Sequence record: PZ347775.1
Direction: 5' to 3' (one strand)
Length of the DNA stretch: 64,000 nucleotides
Origin: a phage
In this document: positions 2,468 through 38,479 of the stretch, in pieces
Numbering within the stretch: position 1 is the stretch's first letter
Layout of the letters: each line of letters starts with the position of its first letter
Translations under genes and position numbers: made by a program
Notes under the pieces: model-generated
The model's input: only the letters and a program-made list of their open reading frames with translations
The model's database searches: none
Told to the model about the DNA's origin: nothing

Positions 2468-2941
2468 TTATTTGATTTGTTTAGCAGACCAAATGCGGTC
2501 TTTAATAATTTTTTGGATGTCTTCAACATACTCAAGAGAGTGAACATGTGGATTATCTTTGAAACTATAGGCACGGGCTAACTTTTGGCCTTCGGTTTTG
2601 ATTACTAAAAGCTCTTTAAGGATAGCTTCATACTTAGCGATAATTCCTTTAACAATATTTTTTTCTTGTGTAGCTTTAGGATCTGCTTTAGGAGCAGGTT
2701 TACCCGAAGCCTTTGCAAAAGCAGCACCAGTAGCAACTAAACTTTTCCAGGCCATACTAACCGCATTTCCCGTAAATCCTTCGGCTTTCATATCACGAGC
2801 AAATTGGAATCGTGATTCATCGGAAGCATCTTTATAGGAATATTTACCCGCGGCAATGGCAGCTTTTGCAACAGCTTGAATTTCAGTGCTAGATGCTTCA
2901 TTTAACACCGCTTCATTTAAAAATTGAGCATATGATTTCAT
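2468..2941 (-). CDS. internal-protein-like protein with capsid targeting sequence (157 aa)
   Basis: N-terminus MKSYAQFLNEA matches the T4 internal-protein CTS pattern MK(T/S)(Y/F)xEF(I/L)xEA; SD AGGAAATAAG; late promoter upstream. Confidence 0.6.
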   Translation of the reverse strand: MKSYAQFLNEAVLNEASSTEIQAVAKAAIAAGKYSYKDASDESRFQFARDMKAEGFTGNAVSMAWKSLVATGAAFAKASGKPAPKADPKATQEKNIVKGIIAKYEAILKELLVIKTEGQKLARAYSFKDNPHVHSLEYVEDIQKIIKDRIWSAKQIK

Positions 2942-2977: not shown

Positions 2978-2985
2978 TATTTATA
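2978..2985 (-). promoter_or_regulatory. T4 late promoter TATAAATA
   Basis: Exact TATAAATA on minus strand about 40 nt upstream of ORF 2468-2941. Confidence 0.5.
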
Positions 2986-2991
2986 CTAAAA

Positions 2992-3015
2992 AGCCCCAAC
3001 CTTTCGGTCGGGGCT
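2992..3015 (-). terminator. rho-independent terminator hairpin, second copy of the 2438-2458 element
   Basis: AGCCCCAACCTTTCGGTCGGGGCT followed by T-run on minus-strand RNA. Confidence 0.5.
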
Positions 3016-3059
3016 AAGCCTTGCGGCAACCTTGTCGGGGTTCCACCTGCTAAGGCAAG

Positions 3060-3326: not shown

Positions 3327-3677
3327 TTAATATTCTTTTAAAGCATCAATCTGTTCACGACGTTTACGCCATAAATCAATTGCTTCATACGCAGATTCAG
3401 CATTTCGAATTGGACGGCATTTATATAAAGACTCGTGATTTTGATATTGCGTAGATAACGTAATTTTATCTAAAAGGTCTTTACGTTCAAAGTATTCGTA
3501 ACCATCTAAGCCAAATGAACGATTTTTGAGAAATTGCCAATGACCATATTCGTTTTCGACATAAACATAATCCGCGTGTTGATAAAGCAAATTAATTACA
3601 CGTTCAGAAATAACAGTGTCATTGTGATTAAAATAAAATGTTAAATCATGAACTACTAAATAAACATTACCTTTCAT
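3327..3677 (-). CDS. hypothetical protein (116 aa) directly downstream of tRNA-Arg
   Basis: ORF with SD GAGGAAAAT before ATG. Confidence 0.5.
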   Translation of the reverse strand: MKGNVYLVVHDLTFYFNHNDTVISERVINLLYQHADYVYVENEYGHWQFLKNRSFGLDGYEYFERKDLLDKITLSTQYQNHESLYKCRPIRNAESAYEAIDLWRKRREQIDALKEY

Positions 3678-3693: not shown

Positions 3694-3769
3694 TGGTCGA
3701 GGCAGTAGGGATCGAACCTACGACCTAGGACTTAGAAGGTCCTTGCTCTTCCTTCTGAGCTATGCCCCG
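3694..3769 (-). tRNA. tRNA-Arg (anticodon UCU)
   Basis: Manual cloverleaf: acceptor CGGGGCA/TGCCTCG, D-stem GCTC/GAGC, anticodon stem AGGAC/GTCCT, loop CTTCTAA, T-arm GTAGG-TTCGATC-CCTAC, CCA encoded. Confidence 0.85.
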
Positions 3770-3773
3770 TAAT

Positions 3774-3849
3774 TGGGGTGACCGATGGGAGTCGAACCCA
3801 TGACTACGAGAATCACAATCTCGAGTTCTACCAACTGAACTACGGCCAC
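3774..3849 (-). tRNA. tRNA-His (anticodon GUG); no G-1 encoded
   Basis: Acceptor GTGGCCG/CGGTCAC, anticodon stem CGAGA/TCTCG, loop TTGTGAT, T-arm ATGGG-TTCGACT-CCCAT, discriminator C, CCA encoded. Confidence 0.8.
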
Positions 3850-3963
3850 ATTAATACCTACTCCAACAATCAAGATGTCTTCACACGAAATTAAGAGAAG
3901 AGTGATCAGTTCAACCCCGATAATCGCGTCAAGTAGATATTAATGTGACAGTTGTCACAAATT
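3850..3963 (-). other. 114-nt spacer inside tRNA array with hairpin TGTGACA..TGTCACA; candidate small stable RNA or tRNA remnant
   Basis: Non-coding gap between tRNA-His and tRNA-Asn, much longer than other inter-tRNA spacers; contains a palindrome. Confidence 0.25.
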
Positions 3964-4038
3964 TGGCGGACGTGATAGGATTCGAACCTATAACCAATCG
4001 CTTAACAGGCGATCGCTCTGCCATTGAGCTACACATCC
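3964..4038 (-). tRNA. tRNA-Asn (anticodon GUU)
   Basis: Acceptor GGATGTG/CACGTCC, D-stem GCTC/GAGC, anticodon stem ATCGC/GCGAT, loop CTGTTAA, T-arm ATAGG-TTCGAAT-CCTAT, CCA encoded. Confidence 0.85.
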
Positions 4039-4042
4039 AAAT

Positions 4043-4129
4043 TGGTGGGGAGTGATGGAGTCGAACCACCCGAGTCGCAATGACAATGGATTTACAGTCC
4101 ACACCGCTACCTCTACGGGATAACTCCCC
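4043..4129 (-). tRNA. tRNA-Tyr (anticodon GUA), long variable arm
   Basis: Acceptor GGGGAGT/ACTCCCC, anticodon stem GTGGA/TCCAT, loop CTGTAAA, long variable arm, T-arm GGTGG-TTCGACT-CCATC, CCA encoded. Confidence 0.8.
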
Positions 4130-4142
4130 TTAATTCTTAATT

Positions 4143-4217
4143 TGGTGGCCCTGGGTGGAATTGAACCACCATCTGGCGATTATGAGTCGCTTGCTTGAAC
4201 CTTCCAGCTACAGGGCC
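4143..4217 (-). tRNA. tRNA with CAU anticodon (elongator Met or lysidine-type Ile)
   Basis: Acceptor GGCCCTG/CAGGGCC with G1-C72 (so not initiator-like), anticodon loop CTCATAA, T-loop TTCAATT, CCA encoded. Confidence 0.75.
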
Positions 4218-4218
4218 T

Positions 4219-4294
4219 TGGTGCTGATTGACGGAATCGAACCGCCGACCTTCTCATTACAAGTGAGTTGCTCTACCTACTGAGCTAAATCAGC
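4219..4294 (-). tRNA. tRNA-Thr (anticodon UGU)
   Basis: Acceptor GCTGATT/AATCAGC, D-stem GCTC/GAGC, anticodon stem ACTCA/TGAGA, loop CTTGTAA, T-arm GGCGG-TTCGATT-CCGTC. Confidence 0.85.
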
Positions 4295-4299
4295 AAAAC

Positions 4300-4389
4300 T
4301 GGCGGAGGCGATAGGATTTGAACCTATGAGTCGCCGGAGCGACTGCCGGTTTTCAAGACCGGTGCATTAAACCACTCTGCCACGCCTCC
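4300..4389 (-). tRNA. tRNA-Ser (anticodon UGA), long variable arm
   Basis: Acceptor GGAGGCG/CGCCTCC, anticodon stem CCGGT/ACCGG, loop CTTGAAA, long variable arm, discriminator G. Confidence 0.85.
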
Positions 4390-4391
4390 AG

Positions 4392-4465
4392 TCTCCATAC
4401 AAGGATTTGAACCTTGGACCTCCTGATCCCAAATCAGGCGCTCTACCAAACTGAGCTACACGGAG
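4392..4465 (-). tRNA. tRNA-Pro (anticodon UGG); CCA not encoded; 2 nt from tRNA-Ser
   Basis: Acceptor CTCCGTG/TATGGAG (two G-U pairs), anticodon stem CCTGA/TCAGG, loop TTTGGGA, T-arm CAAGG-TTCAAAT-CCTTG. Confidence 0.8.
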
Positions 4466-4475
4466 TAAATTAAAT

Positions 4476-4549
<74 letters not shown>

Positions 4550-4554
4550 AAATT

Positions 4555-4641
4555 TGGTGCGAGAAGTGGGACTCGAACCCACAAGGAAATCATTCCGCAG
4601 CATTTTAAGTGCTGTGCCTTTACCAATTTGACCATTCTCGC
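4555..4641 (-). tRNA. tRNA-Leu (anticodon UAA), long variable arm
   Basis: Acceptor GCGAGAA/TTCTCGC, anticodon stem AGCAC/GCTGC (one mismatch), loop TTAAAAT, T-arm GTGGG-TTCGAGT-CCCAC. Confidence 0.85.
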
Positions 4642-4642
4642 G

Positions 4643-4715
4643 CTGGGAATAAAGGACTCGAACCTTTGCATCCTGGAATCAAAATCCAGTGCCTTACCAA
4701 CTTGGCTAATTCCCA
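4643..4715 (-). tRNA. tRNA-Gln (anticodon UUG); CCA not encoded; 1 nt from tRNA-Leu
   Basis: Acceptor TGGGAAT/ATTCCCA, anticodon stem CTGGA/TCCAG, loop TTTTGAT, T-arm AAAGG-TTCGAGT-CCTTT, discriminator G. Confidence 0.85.
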
Positions 4716-5507: not shown

Positions 5508-5693
5508 TTATTCACCTTTAGAAATTTTATCCATAACGATAGCAATTAAACCAATTAAAAATGCTACTACAAGTGAAAATACATTTTCTGCTGTAGTTAA
5601 TAATCCGCATATAAATCCAACAAACATTGAAAAACTAAAAGCGGAAGCAGAAATTGCAATAGCAACATTTCGAATTAATTCACAACGTTTCAT
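5508..5693 (-). CDS. small hydrophobic (membrane-like) protein (61 aa)
   Basis: SD GAGGAG before ATG; protein is mostly hydrophobic. Confidence 0.5.
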   Translation of the reverse strand: MKRCELIRNVAIAISASAFSFSMFVGFICGLLTTAENVFSLVVAFLIGLIAIVMDKISKGE

Positions 5694-5722
5694 TTTATTC
5701 TCCTCAGTAGTTGATAGGGTAA

Positions 5723-5752
5723 TAATATCACTACCCCATCTAAAAGTAAACG
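5723..5752 (-). promoter_or_regulatory. T4 early-type promoter (GTTTAC, 17 bp, TATTAT)
   Basis: Minus strand hexamers with 17-bp spacer; heads the operon running through the tRNA array. Confidence 0.5.
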
Positions 5753-5761
5753 GTTTATAAA

Positions 5762-6070
5762 CTATTTTATTCCGCGTGATGCAATTGTGTTCTGCCGTTT
5801 AACACCAGTTTGTTTAAAGTCATGATTGTCGATTTGATCGGTACGAGCAACACCGAATGATGATTTAATCTTAGCTTTAGATCCTTTAGTTATAGAAATA
5901 AACATCTCGGAAGCCCCTTTCTTAAAGTCCGAGGCGATTACTTCAACGCCGTTCTTAGCAAGTGACCTCAGAATTGCCTCCGCGTACTCATCATCAAGAC
6001 TCGCCTGAGTATTAATAACGAATGTCTTTGGTGCAGTCGCTTCATTGATAAATTCTTGATATGTTTTCAT
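5762..6070 (-). CDS. ipI: internal protein I-like protein with capsid targeting sequence (102 aa from MKTYQEF)
   Basis: N-terminus MKTYQEFINEA is the classical CTS; gene sits at the T4 ipI position next to 57B; own early promoter. Confidence 0.7.
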   Translation of the reverse strand: MKTYQEFINEATAPKTFVINTQASLDDEYAEAILRSLAKNGVEVIASDFKKGASEMFISITKGSKAKIKSSFGVARTDQIDNHDFKQTGVKRQNTIASRGIK

Positions 6071-6104
6071 TTTGATTTCCATTTAGTTTTGTTTTGATAG
6101 GGTA

Positions 6105-6134
6105 ATAGTATCACAACTAAACCACCGTGTAAAC
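6105..6134 (-). promoter_or_regulatory. T4 early-type promoter (TTTACA, 17 bp, TACTAT)
   Basis: Minus strand hexamers with 17-bp spacer and TG extended -10. Confidence 0.55.
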
Positions 6135-6137
6135 AAT

Positions 6138-6410
6138 TTATTTTAAATAAATTGCATATTTTTTATAACCAGCCGTCTCGTGACGCAGACCTTTTTCATT
6201 AGCAAAGCGTTCAATATTATTAATTTGATTCTGATCAAGTTCTGAAATATCAAATACAAAAAAGTTTCGTTTATTTCCTAACGTTACATGATTCGTCAAA
6301 TCAATGTTATAAAGATGATTTATATTATCAATCATAGTCTTAACAGATTTGCTAATTTTTACTTCTTCATTAAGAGCAGATTCAACGATAAACTCTTTGA
6401 AAGTTTTCAT
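6138..6410 (-). CDS. CTS-bearing internal-protein-like protein (90 aa), unrelated in sequence to the ipI-like neighbour
   Basis: N-terminus MKTFKEFIVESA matches CTS pattern; SD AGGAAAATAAA; own early promoter. Confidence 0.6.
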   Translation of the reverse strand: MKTFKEFIVESALNEEVKISKSVKTMIDNINHLYNIDLTNHVTLGNKRNFFVFDISELDQNQINNIERFANEKGLRHETAGYKKYAIYLK

Positions 6411-6440
6411 TTTATTTTCCTAATTAATTTTGATGAGGTA

Positions 6441-6470
6441 ATAGTATCACTACCTCATCAACGTGTAAAC
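6441..6470 (-). promoter_or_regulatory. T4 early-type promoter (TTTACA, 17 bp, TACTAT) with inverted repeat around the -10
   Basis: Minus strand hexamers with 17-bp spacer; GATGAGGTA/TACCTCATC flank the -10. Confidence 0.55.
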
Positions 6471-6482
6471 AACTTTGTGAAA

Positions 6483-7179
<697 letters not shown>

Positions 7180-7180
<1 letters not shown>

Positions 7181-7893
7181 TATAGTACCTTTAGTGTATT
7201 TTTAATTTTAGAAAAAAGTTCTTCAAGAGAACCATCGTTTGTAATTACTAAATCGCCATCACGAATTGGCAATCCAGCTTCTGTAATATGAGTATCATTG
7301 GATTTTTGACCAGGACGAACTACATGAATTACTGTAGCACCCATCGCCCTAGCCGCATCCATTTCATGATCTTGACGAGTATCAGGAACGATATAATAAT
7401 CATAACCTGAGTTAAATTTATCAAGATAATCTAAAGCAAATAATTTTACCCAATACATGCGGTCGAAGTTATTAACAATCAAATCCGTACCTAGGGCTTG
7501 CATCAGACGACGGACTGACCATTGATCTTCAATATTATTTATAACGTCAGTAATCTTGTTAAATGCTACGAAATTAACTGCGTCATCAAAAACAAACACA
7601 CCTTTAATTGGGCTTTTACTATTAAGATAGCAAAATGCTTGTTCCATAATCGTAATTACTTCTAATTTAGTCAGATTTAAATTAGTTTCACGATCATAGT
7701 CAATTCCTTCAAACTCTTTACGAGTTAAACAAGGATAGCCAGTGTTTGCTGCAAATACGCCCCATGCATAAGCCAATGCATCTTTAATAGGACCAGCAAG
7801 TTGATATTTAACTGCAGAATAATTATTCATGATAAAATCTGCAGTAGTATCTTTTCCACTACGCTTTACACCACTTAAAAAGATTAGTTTCAT
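7180..7893 (-). CDS. 1: gp1 deoxynucleoside monophosphate kinase (237 aa)
   Basis: P-loop GVKRSGKDT; sequence recognised as T4 gp1. Confidence 0.95.
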
Positions 7894-34992: not shown

Positions 34993-35417
34993 TGCTTCTG
35001 ATCCCTGAAACTCATGAATTAGTTCTCGAGAATGTCGAAGCACTTATTCCTGAAGCACAGGGTCGCTTTGACGAATTGTCTTCTGCTTTAAATAAAGACG
35101 ATATAAATACAATTATCGAGAATATGCTTGATGATGAAACTGATTTAGCAGTTGCATTAGCTTCTATTAATGAAAACATGCCGTTAAATGAATTCATTGT
35201 TAAGCACGTTTCAGCTCGTGGTGAAATTACACGTACTAAAGATCGCAAAACACGCGAACGTAATGCATTTCAAACCACTGGGCTGTCTAAAGCAAAACGT
35301 AGACAAATTGCTCGCAAAGCTACCAAAACGAAGATTGCCAATCCAGCAGGTCAATCTCGTGCTCAGCGTAAGCGTAAAAAAGCTCTTAAACGCCGTAAAG
35401 CATTAGGATTAAGCTAA
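34992..35417 (+). CDS. 68: gp68 prohead core protein (141 aa)
   Basis: Length and order as T4. Confidence 0.9.
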
Positions 35418-36055
35418 TGAATGAACCCCAATTATTAATTGAAACTTGGGGTCAACCTGGCGAAATTATTGATGGCGTGCCAATGCTTGAATCCCACGAT
35501 GGAAAAGACCTAGGTTTAAAACCGGGTTTATACATCGAAGGAATATTCATGCAAGCAGAAGTCGTCAATAGAAATAAACGTCTTTATCCAAAACGCATAT
35601 TAGAAAAAGCGGTAAAAGACTATATCAATGAGCAAGTTTTAACTAAACAAGCTCTCGGAGAATTAAATCATCCTCCACGCGCTAATGTTGACCCGATGCA
35701 AGCCGCTATCATTATAGAAGATATGTGGTGGAAAGGAAATGACGTATACGGACGAGCTCGTGTTATTGAAGGTGACCATGGTCCTGGAGATAAATTAGCA
35801 GCTAATATTCGTGCCGGATGGATTCCAGGAGTTTCTTCTCGTGGATTAGGTTCATTGACTGACACAAATAAAGGTTATCGTATCGTAAACGAAGGATTCA
35901 AATTAACTGTAGGTGTTGATGCAGTATGGGGTCCAAGTGCTCCAGATGCATGGGTAACTCCTAAGGAAATTACCGAATCACAGACGGCGGAAGCCGATAC
36001 AAGTGCCGATGACGCCTATATGGCTCTCGCAGAGGCCATGAAAAAAGCGTTATAA
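35417..36055 (+). CDS. 21: gp21 prohead core protease (212 aa)
   Basis: Length and order as T4. Confidence 0.95.
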   Translation: MNEPQLLIETWGQPGEIIDGVPMLESHDGKDLGLKPGLYIEGIFMQAEVVNRNKRLYPKRILEKAVKDYINEQVLTKQALGELNHPPRANVDPMQAAIIIEDMWWKGNDVYGRARVIEGDHGPGDKLAANIRAGWIPGVSSRGLGSLTDTNKGYRIVNEGFKLTVGVDAVWGPSAPDAWVTPKEITESQTAEADTSADDAYMALAEAMKKAL

Positions 36056-36085: not shown

Positions 36086-36895
36086 ATGCTTAAAGAACAA
36101 CTGATTGCCGAAGCGCAGAAAATTGATGCTTCCGTTGCTCTTGATAGTATTTTCGAATCAGTTAATATTTCTCCGGAAGCAAAAGAAACTTTCGGCACTG
36201 TATTCGAAGCTACCGTCAAGCAGCACGCCGTTAAATTAGCTGAATCTCATATCGCTAAAATTGCTGAAAAAGCAGAAGAAGAAGTAGAAAAAAATAAAGA
36301 AGAAGCCGAAGAAAAAGCTGAGAAGAAAATCGCTGAGCAAGCTTCTAAATTCATCGACCATCTTGCGAAAGAATGGCTCGCTGAAAATAAATTAGCAGTT
36401 GATAAAGGCATCAAAGCCGAACTGTTTGAATCCATGCTTGGTGGATTAAAAGAGCTCTTTGTTGAACACAACGTTGTTGTTCCAGAAGAATCAGTTGATG
36501 TTGTGGCTGAAATGGAAGAAGAGCTGCAAGAACATAAAGAAGAATCAGCTCGTCTGTTCGAAGAACTCAATATGCGCGACGCATATATCAATTATGTGCA
36601 GCGTGAAGTGGCATTGAGCGAAAGTACTAAAGATCTGACTGAGTCTCAAAAAGAAAAAGTCTCTGCTCTGGTCGAAGGTATGGATTATTCAGATGAATTC
36701 TCAAGTAAATTGAGTGCCATCGTAGAAATGGTGAAGAAGTCTAATAAAGATGAAAGCACTATTACTGAGGGTATAAATACTCCTGATACTGAAGCAGCCG
36801 GACTGAATTTCGTCACTGAAGCTGTAGAAGATAAAGCTGCACCTGGTGCAGAAGATATTGTAAGTGTATATGCGAAAGTCGCATCTCGTTTCTAA
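36086..36895 (+). CDS. 22: gp22 prohead core scaffold (269 aa)
   Basis: Acidic helical protein; length as T4. Confidence 0.95.
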   Translation: MLKEQLIAEAQKIDASVALDSIFESVNISPEAKETFGTVFEATVKQHAVKLAESHIAKIAEKAEEEVEKNKEEAEEKAEKKIAEQASKFIDHLAKEWLAENKLAVDKGIKAELFESMLGGLKELFVEHNVVVPEESVDVVAEMEEELQEHKEESARLFEELNMRDAYINYVQREVALSESTKDLTESQKEKVSALVEGMDYSDEFSSKLSAIVEMVKKSNKDESTITEGINTPDTEAAGLNFVTEAVEDKAAPGAEDIVSVYAKVASRF

Positions 36896-36913: not shown

Positions 36914-38479
36914 ATGACTATCAAAACTAAAGCTGAACTTTTGAACAAATGGAAGCCATTACTGGAAGGTGAAGGTTTACCGGAAATTGCTAATAGCAAA
37001 CAAGCGATTATCGCTAAAATCTTTGAAAACCAGGAAAAAGATTTCCAGACAGCTCCAGAATACAAAGACGAAAAAATCGCTCAGGCGTTCGGTTCTTTCT
37101 TAACAGAAGCTGAAATCGGTGGTGACCACGGTTACAATGCTACTAACATCGCTGCAGGTCAGACTTCTGGCGCAGTAACTCAGATTGGTCCGGCTGTTAT
37201 GGGTATGGTACGTCGTGCTATTCCTAACCTGATTGCTTTCGATATTTGCGGTGTTCAACCGATGAGCAGCCCGACCGGTCAGGTATTCGCACTGCGCGCA
37301 GTATATGGTAAAGATCCGATCGCTGCCGATGCTAAAGAAGCATTCCACCCAATGTATGGTCCAGACGCAATGTTCTCTGGTCAGGGTGCTGCTAAGAAAT
37401 TCCCAGCTCTGGCTGCTAGCACACAAACTACAGTAGGTGATATCTATACTCACTTCTTCCAGGACACTGGTACTGTATATCTGCAGGCTTCTGTTCAAGT
37501 AACAATCGATGCTGGCGCGACTGATGCAACTAAATTAGATGCTGAAATTAAAAAACAAATGGAAGCTGGTGCACTGGTAGAAATCGCTGAAGGTATGGCT
37601 ACTTCTATCGCTGAACTCCAGGAAGGTTTCAACGGTTCTACCGATAACCCATGGAATGAAATGGGCTTCCGTATCGATAAGCAAGTTATCGAAGCTAAAT
37701 CTCGCCAGCTGAAAGCTGCTTACTCTATCGAATTAGCACAAGACCTCCGCGCTGTTCACGGTATGGATGCTGATGCTGAACTGTCTGGTATTCTGGCTAC
37801 CGAAATCATGCTGGAAATCAACCGTGAAATTGTTGATTGGATTAACTACTCCGCACAGGTTGGTAAATCTGGTATGACCCTGACTCCGGGTTCTAAAGCT
37901 GGTGTATTTGACTTCCAGGATCCAATTGATATTCGTGGTGCTCGCTGGGCGGGTGAATCCTTTAAAGCTCTGTTGTTCCAGATTGACAAAGAAGCAGTTG
38001 AAATTGCTCGTCAGACCGGTCGTGGTGAAGGTAACTTCATTATCGCTTCCCGTAACGTAGTTAACGTTCTGGCTTCAGTTGATACTGGCATTTCTTATGC
38101 TGCACAGGGTCTGGCTACCGGCTTCAACACTGATACTACCAAGTCAGTATTTGCTGGTGTTCTGGGTGGTAAATACCGTGTATATATCGATCAGTATGCT
38201 AAACAGGATTATTTCACTGTAGGTTATAAAGGTCCGAACGAAATGGATGCTGGTATTTACTATGCTCCATATGTAGCTCTGACTCCGCTGCGTGGTTCCG
38301 ATCCGAAGAACTTCCAACCAGTAATGGGATTCAAAACTCGTTACGGTATCGGTATCAACCCATTTGCAGAATCCGCTGCTCAGGCTCCGGCTTCTCGCAT
38401 CCAGAGCGGTATGCCTTCTATTCTGAATAGCCTTGGTAAAAACGCTTACTTCCGCCGTGTATATGTTAAAGGTATCTAA
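36914..38479 (+). CDS. 23: gp23 major capsid protein (521 aa)
   Basis: Sequence recognised as near-identical to T4 gp23. Confidence 0.97.
   Translation: MTIKTKAELLNKWKPLLEGEGLPEIANSKQAIIAKIFENQEKDFQTAPEYKDEKIAQAFGSFLTEAEIGGDHGYNATNIAAGQTSGAVTQIGPAVMGMVRRAIPNLIAFDICGVQPMSSPTGQVFALRAVYGKDPIAADAKEAFHPMYGPDAMFSGQGAAKKFPALAASTQTTVGDIYTHFFQDTGTVYLQASVQVTIDAGATDATKLDAEIKKQMEAGALVEIAEGMATSIAELQEGFNGSTDNPWNEMGFRIDKQVIEAKSRQLKAAYSIELAQDLRAVHGMDADAELSGILATEIMLEINREIVDWINYSAQVGKSGMTLTPGSKAGVFDFQDPIDIRGARWAGESFKALLFQIDKEAVEIARQTGRGEGNFIIASRNVVNVLASVDTGISYAAQGLATGFNTDTTKSVFAGVLGGKYRVYIDQYAKQDYFTVGYKGPNEMDAGIYYAPYVALTPLRGSDPKNFQPVMGFKTRYGIGINPFAESAAQAPASRIQSGMPSILNSLGKNAYFRRVYVKGI

Follow-up and report, generated by a model that had tools for sequence, protein, structure and literature searches.

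The 64,000 nucleotides of phage DNA analysed here (sequence record PZ347775.1; 'the window' throughout, with positions counted from its first base) are a segment of a Tequatrovirus (T4-like) genome, and the subject of this analysis is a pair of small minus-strand genes that lie between gene 57B and the homologue of trna.4, in the slot that is occupied by ipI in phage T4. Comparison of the predicted proteins leaves hardly any doubt that the products of these genes, of 102 and 90 amino acids, are the internal head proteins Ip7 and Ip9, respectively, and the region is, in all probability, the variable internal protein (ip) locus of Tequatrovirus, with the known ip9 and ip7 cassettes between 57B and trna.4. 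The presence in this slot, at 5762-6070 and 6138-6410, of two open reading frames (ORFs), each starting with a capsid targeting sequence (CTS), was reported in a preliminary description of the window and is borne out here. The ip loci were taken to be the 57B-trna.4 and denV-e intervals, and both genes are flanked by 57B and trna.4, an arrangement syntenic with that of T4 and RB32. Transcription of the minus strand passes, in order, through gene 1 (deoxynucleoside monophosphate kinase), 57A, 57B, ip9, ip7, trna.4, trna.3, trna.2 and the tRNA array. The features of the locus, listed in the same direction, are the following.

6483-6938, minus strand: gene 57B, upstream boundary of the ip locus; Acb1 anti-CBASS phosphodiesterase family (Pfam PF23474 Acb1, 2.6e-60; synteny with T4 and RB32)
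6428-6475: copy 3 of a 48-nucleotide repeat resembling promoter-early stem-loop (PeSL) elements; 14-bp hairpin at 6430-6461 around the -10 box (-18.1 kcal/mol, z -4.7)
6441-6469, minus strand: early promoter of ip9, TTTACA (6469-6464), 17 nucleotides, TACTAT (6446-6441); Shine-Dalgarno sequence AGGA at 6421-6418
6138-6410, minus strand: ip9, 90 amino acids plus stop codon; CTS MKTFKEFIVE in codons 1-10 (6381-6410); predicted 72-residue alpha/beta body
6092-6139: copy 2 of the repeat (ip7); hairpin degenerate, fold z -0.55
6105-6133, minus strand: early promoter of ip7, TTTACA (6133-6128), 17 nucleotides, TACTAT (6110-6105)
5762-6070, minus strand: ip7, 102 amino acids plus stop codon; CTS MKTYQEFINE in codons 1-10 (6041-6070); core at residues 15-72, tail at residues 83-102
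5709-5756: copy 1 of the repeat; 12-bp hairpin at 5713-5740 around the -10 box (-16.1 kcal/mol, z -3.3)
5722-5750, minus strand: early promoter of trna.4, TTTACT, 17 nucleotides, TATTAT, closing the ip cassette array downstream
5508-5693, minus strand: trna.4 homologue, 61 amino acids, hydrophobic, downstream boundary of the ip locus (phrog_1692, 6e-35; synteny)

The Ip7 protein is 95-96% identical to the Ip7 of RB32 and RB15 over 102 of 102 residues (95.7% for T2 ip7). Its match to phrog_2667, 'internal head protein', stands at 3.2e-42, and some of its homologues carry the name Ip7. The identity of Ip9 to its counterparts in RB15 and RB32 is 79-80% over 90 of 90 residues, the approximately 20% divergence being concentrated in residues 19-45, and the match to phrog_7673, also an 'internal head protein', covers profile positions 1-90 of 90 (9.4e-56); several members of the 17 clusters of Ip9 homologues are named Ip9 or internal head protein. 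In the RefSeq records of MX01, IME340 and RB32, ip7 and ip9 are both annotated as internal head proteins. The two families are narrow, at 14-17 clusters (90% identity) in a set of 5.8 billion proteins; tblastn detected the Ip7 body in 284 phage records and the Ip9 body in 182, many of the latter annotated as Ip9 or internal head protein. The nearest genome is that of Escherichia phage ECO07P2, with 99.8% identity across 801 bases around both ORFs, and parts of this 801-base region are matched by 603 phage records, mostly with names of Escherichia or Shigella phages. RB15 and RB32 share with the window the lengths of both proteins, the order of ip9 and then ip7, and the 57B-trna.4 location, but in these phages ip9 is preceded by ip5, which is absent from the window locus.

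The longest-ORF call extends ip7 to an in-frame ATG at 6082, four codons upstream (MEIKMKTYQEF), which was rejected as the start on the strength of the leader alignment and of the annotation of the same 309-nucleotide gene in the nearest genome. The start is placed at 6070 because a Shine-Dalgarno-equivalent TGGA precedes that ATG and the nearest-genome annotation agrees. The ATG at 6082 arises where the usual AGGA reads TGGA (6071-6082, minus strand), and its use would bury the CTS behind four additional residues. A 77-residue 'ip7 protein' of Escherichia phage OLB35 is a chimera, in which residues ~28-72 of Ip7 are fused to Ip9-type residues ~58-90; its annotated start has no CTS, and it is another rearrangement product of the ip locus.

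Each of the two cassettes consists of a repeated early promoter of ~48 nucleotides, a Shine-Dalgarno sequence, ten CTS codons and a small body unrelated to that of its neighbour. The N-termini, with the expected cleavage point marked by a slash, read MKTFKEFIVE/S in Ip9 and MKTYQEFINE/A in Ip7. In the CTS of T4 IPIII, amber-suppressor experiments have mapped an aromatic residue at position 4 and phenylalanine at position 7 as directing prohead targeting, and isoleucine or leucine at position 8 and glutamate at position 10 as directing processing by gp21 (PMC9026906). Both window proteins match all four positions, which are conserved in every member of the Ip7 and Ip9 families, and both contain the gp21 motif L/I-x-E: INE10 in Ip7, and IVE10 with a possible second site, LNE15, in Ip9. 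Scanned in six frames for the CTS signature, the 64-kb window has exactly three ORFs that begin with it, ip9, ip7 and the ORF at 2468-2941, in agreement with the earlier count of three around the tRNA array.

Past the targeting peptide, the proteins part ways. BLASTP aligns Ip7 with Ip9 over residues 1-11 only, so that the bodies are unrelated, as had been stated. The alignments of Ip7 and Ip9 with T4 IpI comprise only the N-terminal 26-32 residues (pairwise E 0.001 for Ip7), and the significant alignments with IpII and IpIII are confined to the first 11-20 residues; no homology to the mature body of T4 IPI* was detected. The claim that the 102-residue product resembles IpI therefore does not hold beyond the targeting peptide, and even there Ip7 is of the IpII/IpIII type: the CTS of these proteins, MKTYQEFIAEA, matches that of Ip7 at 10 of 11 positions, whereas the MKTFKEF-type start characteristic of IpI, along with the ipI-type leader, is found on Ip9 and not on Ip7. 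The propeptide of T4 IpI comprises 19 residues and is cut after ITE, whereas a propeptide of 10 residues is expected here. What the window proteins have in common with IpI and IPI* is the genomic slot, the type of promoter and leader, a propeptide that would be cut by gp21, and a small mature product of the kind delivered with the DNA (PMC3012670); the mature bodies, in contrast, have no detectable sequence similarity. IpII and IpIII differ further in being encoded at another T4 locus, between denV and e, in having unrelated bodies, and in that their function is demonstrated whereas here it is inferred.

The promoters of ip9 and ip7 have exactly the early form that had been described (TTTACA-17-TACTAT in both); the attribution of the same promoter to the ORF at 2468-2941 fails, since that ORF has a late motif instead. 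The ip9, ip7 and trna.4 promoters all carry an extended -10 TG at -15/-14 and are copies of one 48-nucleotide direct repeat. The pattern GTTTAC-N15-TGNTAYTAT has six matches in the window compared with 0.11 expected, whereas a scan of the region for generic sigma-70 promoters showed no enrichment (19 found, 16 expected); the repetition of this promoter exceeds chance. The hairpins that surround the -10 box in copies 1 and 3 were rejected as intrinsic terminators because no T-run follows on either strand. Between the two hairpin versions, one pair is altered in both its bases (A-T to G-C) and another goes from G-C to G-T; the hairpins may act as a recombination hotspot or in the regulation of read-through RNA.

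This arrangement recalls the PeSL elements (Arbiol 2010; Comeau, Arbiol & Krisch 2014), in which a repeated early promoter with a stem-loop flanks variable small genes and serves as a substrate for recombination. For the T4/PST pair, the published consensus is TTTACW-N17-TAYWAT (PMC4122927), and the three window copies fit it. Two differences stand out: in the window, the -10 box lies within the stem-loop, which only two of the three copies retain intact, and the junction that could be mapped falls downstream of the promoter, among the CTS codons. The paper with this consensus also ties PeSL-type exchange to the Repoila 1994 IP locus (PMC4122927). As in the PeSL systems, the same repeats bound differing gene sets in related phages: the 57B-trna.4 interval contains ipI in T4, ip5-ip9-ip7 in RB32, ip5-ip9-ip7-ip8 in RB15 and ip9-ip7 in the window. 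Later papers reportedly credit Repoila et al. 1994 with the notion that modular exchange relies on homology between the repeated promoter and CTS sequences, a notion taken further in the PeSL papers.

The leaders of the window genes bear the marks of such an exchange. The ip9 leader with the first seven codons (region 6375-6485, minus strand) is identical to the ip5 leader of RB32 at 94 of 96 positions (98%) and to the T4 ipI leader at 90 of 97 (93%), but only 76% identical to the leader of RB32's own ip9; from codon 8 on, the match is 11/15 to ip9 vs 6/15 to ip5. For ip7, the leader is 63% identical to that of RB32 ip7, and the match to ip7 from codon 8 is 14/15. Compared with RB15 and RB32, the starts are interchanged, window ip9 beginning with MKTFKEF instead of MKTYQEF and window ip7 with MKTYQEF instead of MKTFKEF. 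Because the leader is of the ip5/ipI type, the gene is ip9 from codon 8, and ip5 is missing, the recombination junction is placed inside the CTS codons, between codons 7 and 8; the promoter, Shine-Dalgarno sequence and MKTFKEF codons of the first slot are joined in frame to the ip9 body. The leader and body comparisons are consistent with modular exchange via promoter and CTS homology.

The AlphaFold2 models, both from shallow alignments, suggest small alpha/beta folds. The core of the Ip7 model (pLDDT 68), beta-alpha-beta-beta-alpha and ferredoxin-like, spans residues 15-72 with a block-mean pLDDT of ~74-86; the tail, residues 83-102, is nearly invariant, rich in lysine and arginine, and modelled as disordered: HDFKQTGVKRQNTIASRGIK. 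In the Ip9 model (pLDDT 78), the CTS forms a helix, which a linker joins to an alpha-beta-beta-alpha-beta-beta domain (residues 21-88). With ten residues removed, predicted mature Ip7 would be a protein of 10.0 kDa with an isoelectric point (pI) of 9.7 and Ip9 one of 9.3 kDa and pI 8.0, or of 8.8 kDa and pI 9.0 if Ip9 is also cut at LNE15. At E<=0.5, the Ip7 family profile matches no solved structure in the PDB, IPI* included (there are two designed-protein matches at E~0.7-0.9), and the Ip9 family profile has no match among PDB sequences. Pfam yields only sub-threshold matches for the two proteins (DUF7412 on the CTS; AHD); PADLOC returns nothing for Ip9, and its Csn2 match for Ip7 (E 0.006, 14 bits) was judged to be noise. 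A Foldseek search of BFVD with Ip9 gives one significant match, an unnamed 535-residue protein that may be related to the large Kuttervirus-type protein described below; the remaining matches are weak.

The Ip9 body (residues 19-90; 6141-6356, minus strand) is not confined to T4-like phages. Searches with tblastn and phmmer detect CTS-less homologues of 72-74 amino acids in siphophages with ~44-kb genomes, SHAK7858, JSSK01, UTEC10 and Klebsiella D1, with 50-58% identity to various Ip9 proteins, and homologues with 37-47% identity in Seuratvirus (SHIN8, KS_A3); near the C-terminus of a 755-861-residue Kuttervirus protein, the domain recurs at 28-39%. The 72-74-residue homologues sit among small hypothetical ORFs near primase and helicase genes, and these siphophage and Seuratvirus neighbourhoods are read as early regions. 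Because an exhaustive phmmer search with the Ip9 body against 1.84 billion representatives returns only nine matches at E<=0.001, the family is small. The free-standing versions start where the Ip9 body starts, past the CTS and linker, and two distant representatives have divergent CTS-like starts (MKFNEFLTEA and MKSFKEYLTES), which points to the CTS as an addition to a domain that is itself portable. It is possible, and proposed here only tentatively, that the Ip9 body is a portable 72-residue counter-defence domain that is specific neither to T4-like phages nor to hydroxymethylcytosine (hmC) DNA. If so, in-frame recombination within the ten CTS codons would have turned an ordinary early gene into one for a pre-loaded injected protein, the codon 7/8 junction would be the footprint of this kind of recombination, and the target would be a widespread enterobacterial defence rather than a nuclease specific for glucosyl-hmC.

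The course of events that best accounts for these observations is extrapolated from T4. Each of the genes ip9 and ip7 would be expressed from an early promoter of its own, with late read-through as a probable second source of transcripts; in the prohead, both proteins would attach through the CTS to the scaffolding core of gp22; and gp21 would cut after I-N-E10 in Ip7 and after I-V-E10 and/or L-N-E15 in Ip9. The mature proteins would then stay in the head with the DNA, enter the next host before any gene is expressed and, in all likelihood, attach to a protein of the host's defences and disable it, on the model of Ip1, Ip2 and Ip3, while the repeated promoter and CTS would supply the homology by which cassettes are swapped, added and deleted between phages. 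In T4, Ip1, Ip2 and Ip3 each block one distinct GmrSD variant, with no cross-protection, and 'at least 10' further Ips are uncharacterized (PMC12373910); Ip2 and Ip3, that is, IpII and IpIII, inhibit the GmrSD variants of ECOR21 and ECOR17, and the logic in common would be that of injected, target-specific inhibitors (PMC12373910). An early role of the Ip9 body inside the cell is supported by the CTS-less homologues located near primase and helicase genes in unrelated siphophages. Packaging, processing and injection of Ip7 and Ip9 are highly probable; inhibition of a host defence is a somewhat favoured function, and a GmrSD-type enzyme as the target is a conjecture that may well be wrong.

Several results weigh against this account. 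Neither ip9 nor ip7 is immediately preceded by the exact late-promoter motif TATAAATA, whose nearest copy on the minus strand is at 7536-7543, inside gene 1; therefore, the supply of these proteins at the prohead stage would have to come from read-through or from protein made early. The Pfam, PADLOC and PDB searches, empty or marginal, provide no sequence or fold match of Ip7 or Ip9 to a known anti-defence protein. Full-text literature searches yielded no functional experiment on Ip7 or Ip9 and no relevant phage paper; the BrxU paper contains nothing on Ips apart from citing IPI*.

Among the alternatives, the one that fares best is that Ip7 and Ip9 serve chiefly as structural or DNA-associated parts of the head, in charge neutralization or in the packing or ejection of DNA, and have no specific target in the host. 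The basic mature forms (pI 9.7 for Ip7, 8-9 for Ip9), the conserved basic, disordered tail of Ip7 and the ~1000 internal protein molecules that are embedded within the DNA of the T4 head (PMC3012670) are all compatible with such a role. Nevertheless, it is unlikely: the locus is hypervariable among otherwise near-identical phages, which is better explained by an arms race, all three T4 Ips have proved to be specific inhibitors (PMC12373910), and the CTS-less Ip9 body exists in phages that lack T4-type heads.

It is less probable still that Ip7 and Ip9 are ordinary early cytoplasmic proteins only, which are not packaged and whose CTS-like start is a relic of cassette recombination. The early promoters, in the absence of a late motif directly upstream, point in this direction, as does the fact that, in other phages, the Ip9 body serves without a CTS. 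However, the four CTS positions are kept in every family member despite the exchange of CTS DNA between cassettes, and the T4 ipI leader, 93% identical to that of ip9, precedes the gene for IPI, a known core and head protein (PMC9026906).

A marginally weaker candidate, and a decidedly improbable one, is Ip7 as a divergent member of the IpI (IPI*) family that would act on the same two-subunit GmrS/GmrD target in the same mode. Ip7 is small and basic and shares with IpI the locus and the kind of targeting peptide; against this, the similarity stops within the N-terminal ~30 residues, no PDB chain, that of IPI* or any other, is matched by the Ip7 profile at the threshold given above, and the known Ips are strictly target-specific, without cross-protection (PMC12373910). 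Finally, the suggestion that the 90-residue protein is a new, unrecognized injected effector, for which one could cite the label 'hypothetical protein' that this product bears in many GenBank records, including that of ECO07P2, is practically eliminated, being refuted by the end-to-end homology to Ip9 and by the many named records among the 182; discovery that this was an already known internal protein was what the preliminary description itself had said would overturn it.

Further components and neighbours of interest in the window are the following.

2468-2941, minus strand: CTS-type ORF of 157 amino acids, MKSYAQFLNE/AVLNE/A (slashes as above), found in the motif scan; phrog_2280, unknown function
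3694-4715, minus strand: tRNA array, 11 genes
35417-36055, plus strand: gp21 prohead protease (Pfam Peptidase_S77, 1.5e-111), predicted to cleave off the CTS after I-x-E
36086-36895 and 36914-38479, adjoining gp21: gp22 scaffold and gp23, respectively

The 157-residue ORF has the exact late motif TATAAATA at 2978-2985 (minus strand), ~37 nucleotides upstream, that is, a late rather than an early promoter, and is bracketed by two 36-nucleotide terminator hairpins that are 92% identical (2428-2463 and 2983-3018). It belongs to the RB32ORF132c family, which is present in 512 phage records and labelled 'hypothetical' in 25 of 25 among the matches listed; of the three CTS ORFs, it is the only one that appears to lack an internal-protein annotation. 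The tRNA genes are those for Arg, His, Asn, Tyr, Met, Thr, Ser, Pro, Gly, Leu and Gln, compared with eight in the T4 array. No segB homing endonuclease lies inside the array (3694-4715), and a 116-residue ORF (phrog_3355, 3327-3677) comes after tRNA-Arg. At the other side of the ip locus, the assignment of 57B to the Acb1 family implies that the ip cassettes are located directly downstream of another counter-defence gene; RefSeq and PHROGs label gene 57B 'RNA ligase', at variance with the Pfam match.

Taken together, the observations of the preliminary description are confirmed in full, whereas its interpretation is supported in part: of the similarity that it proposed to IpI, the part in the CTS region stands and the part in the body does not. 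Ip7 and Ip9 in a hyperplastic ip locus with PeSL-type repeats were already known, the proteins having been named about thirty years ago and the cassette architecture described earlier (Repoila 1994; PeSL papers), so that the discovery value is small; the new, minor details are the junction within the CTS codons and the CTS-less homologues of the Ip9 body in unrelated phages. The remaining Ips, Ip7 and Ip9 among them, are obvious candidates for further injected anti-restriction proteins. For the study of these two, the window offers a clean two-cassette allele, and the CTS-less homologues of Ip9 offer a means to separate the function of the domain from its packaging.

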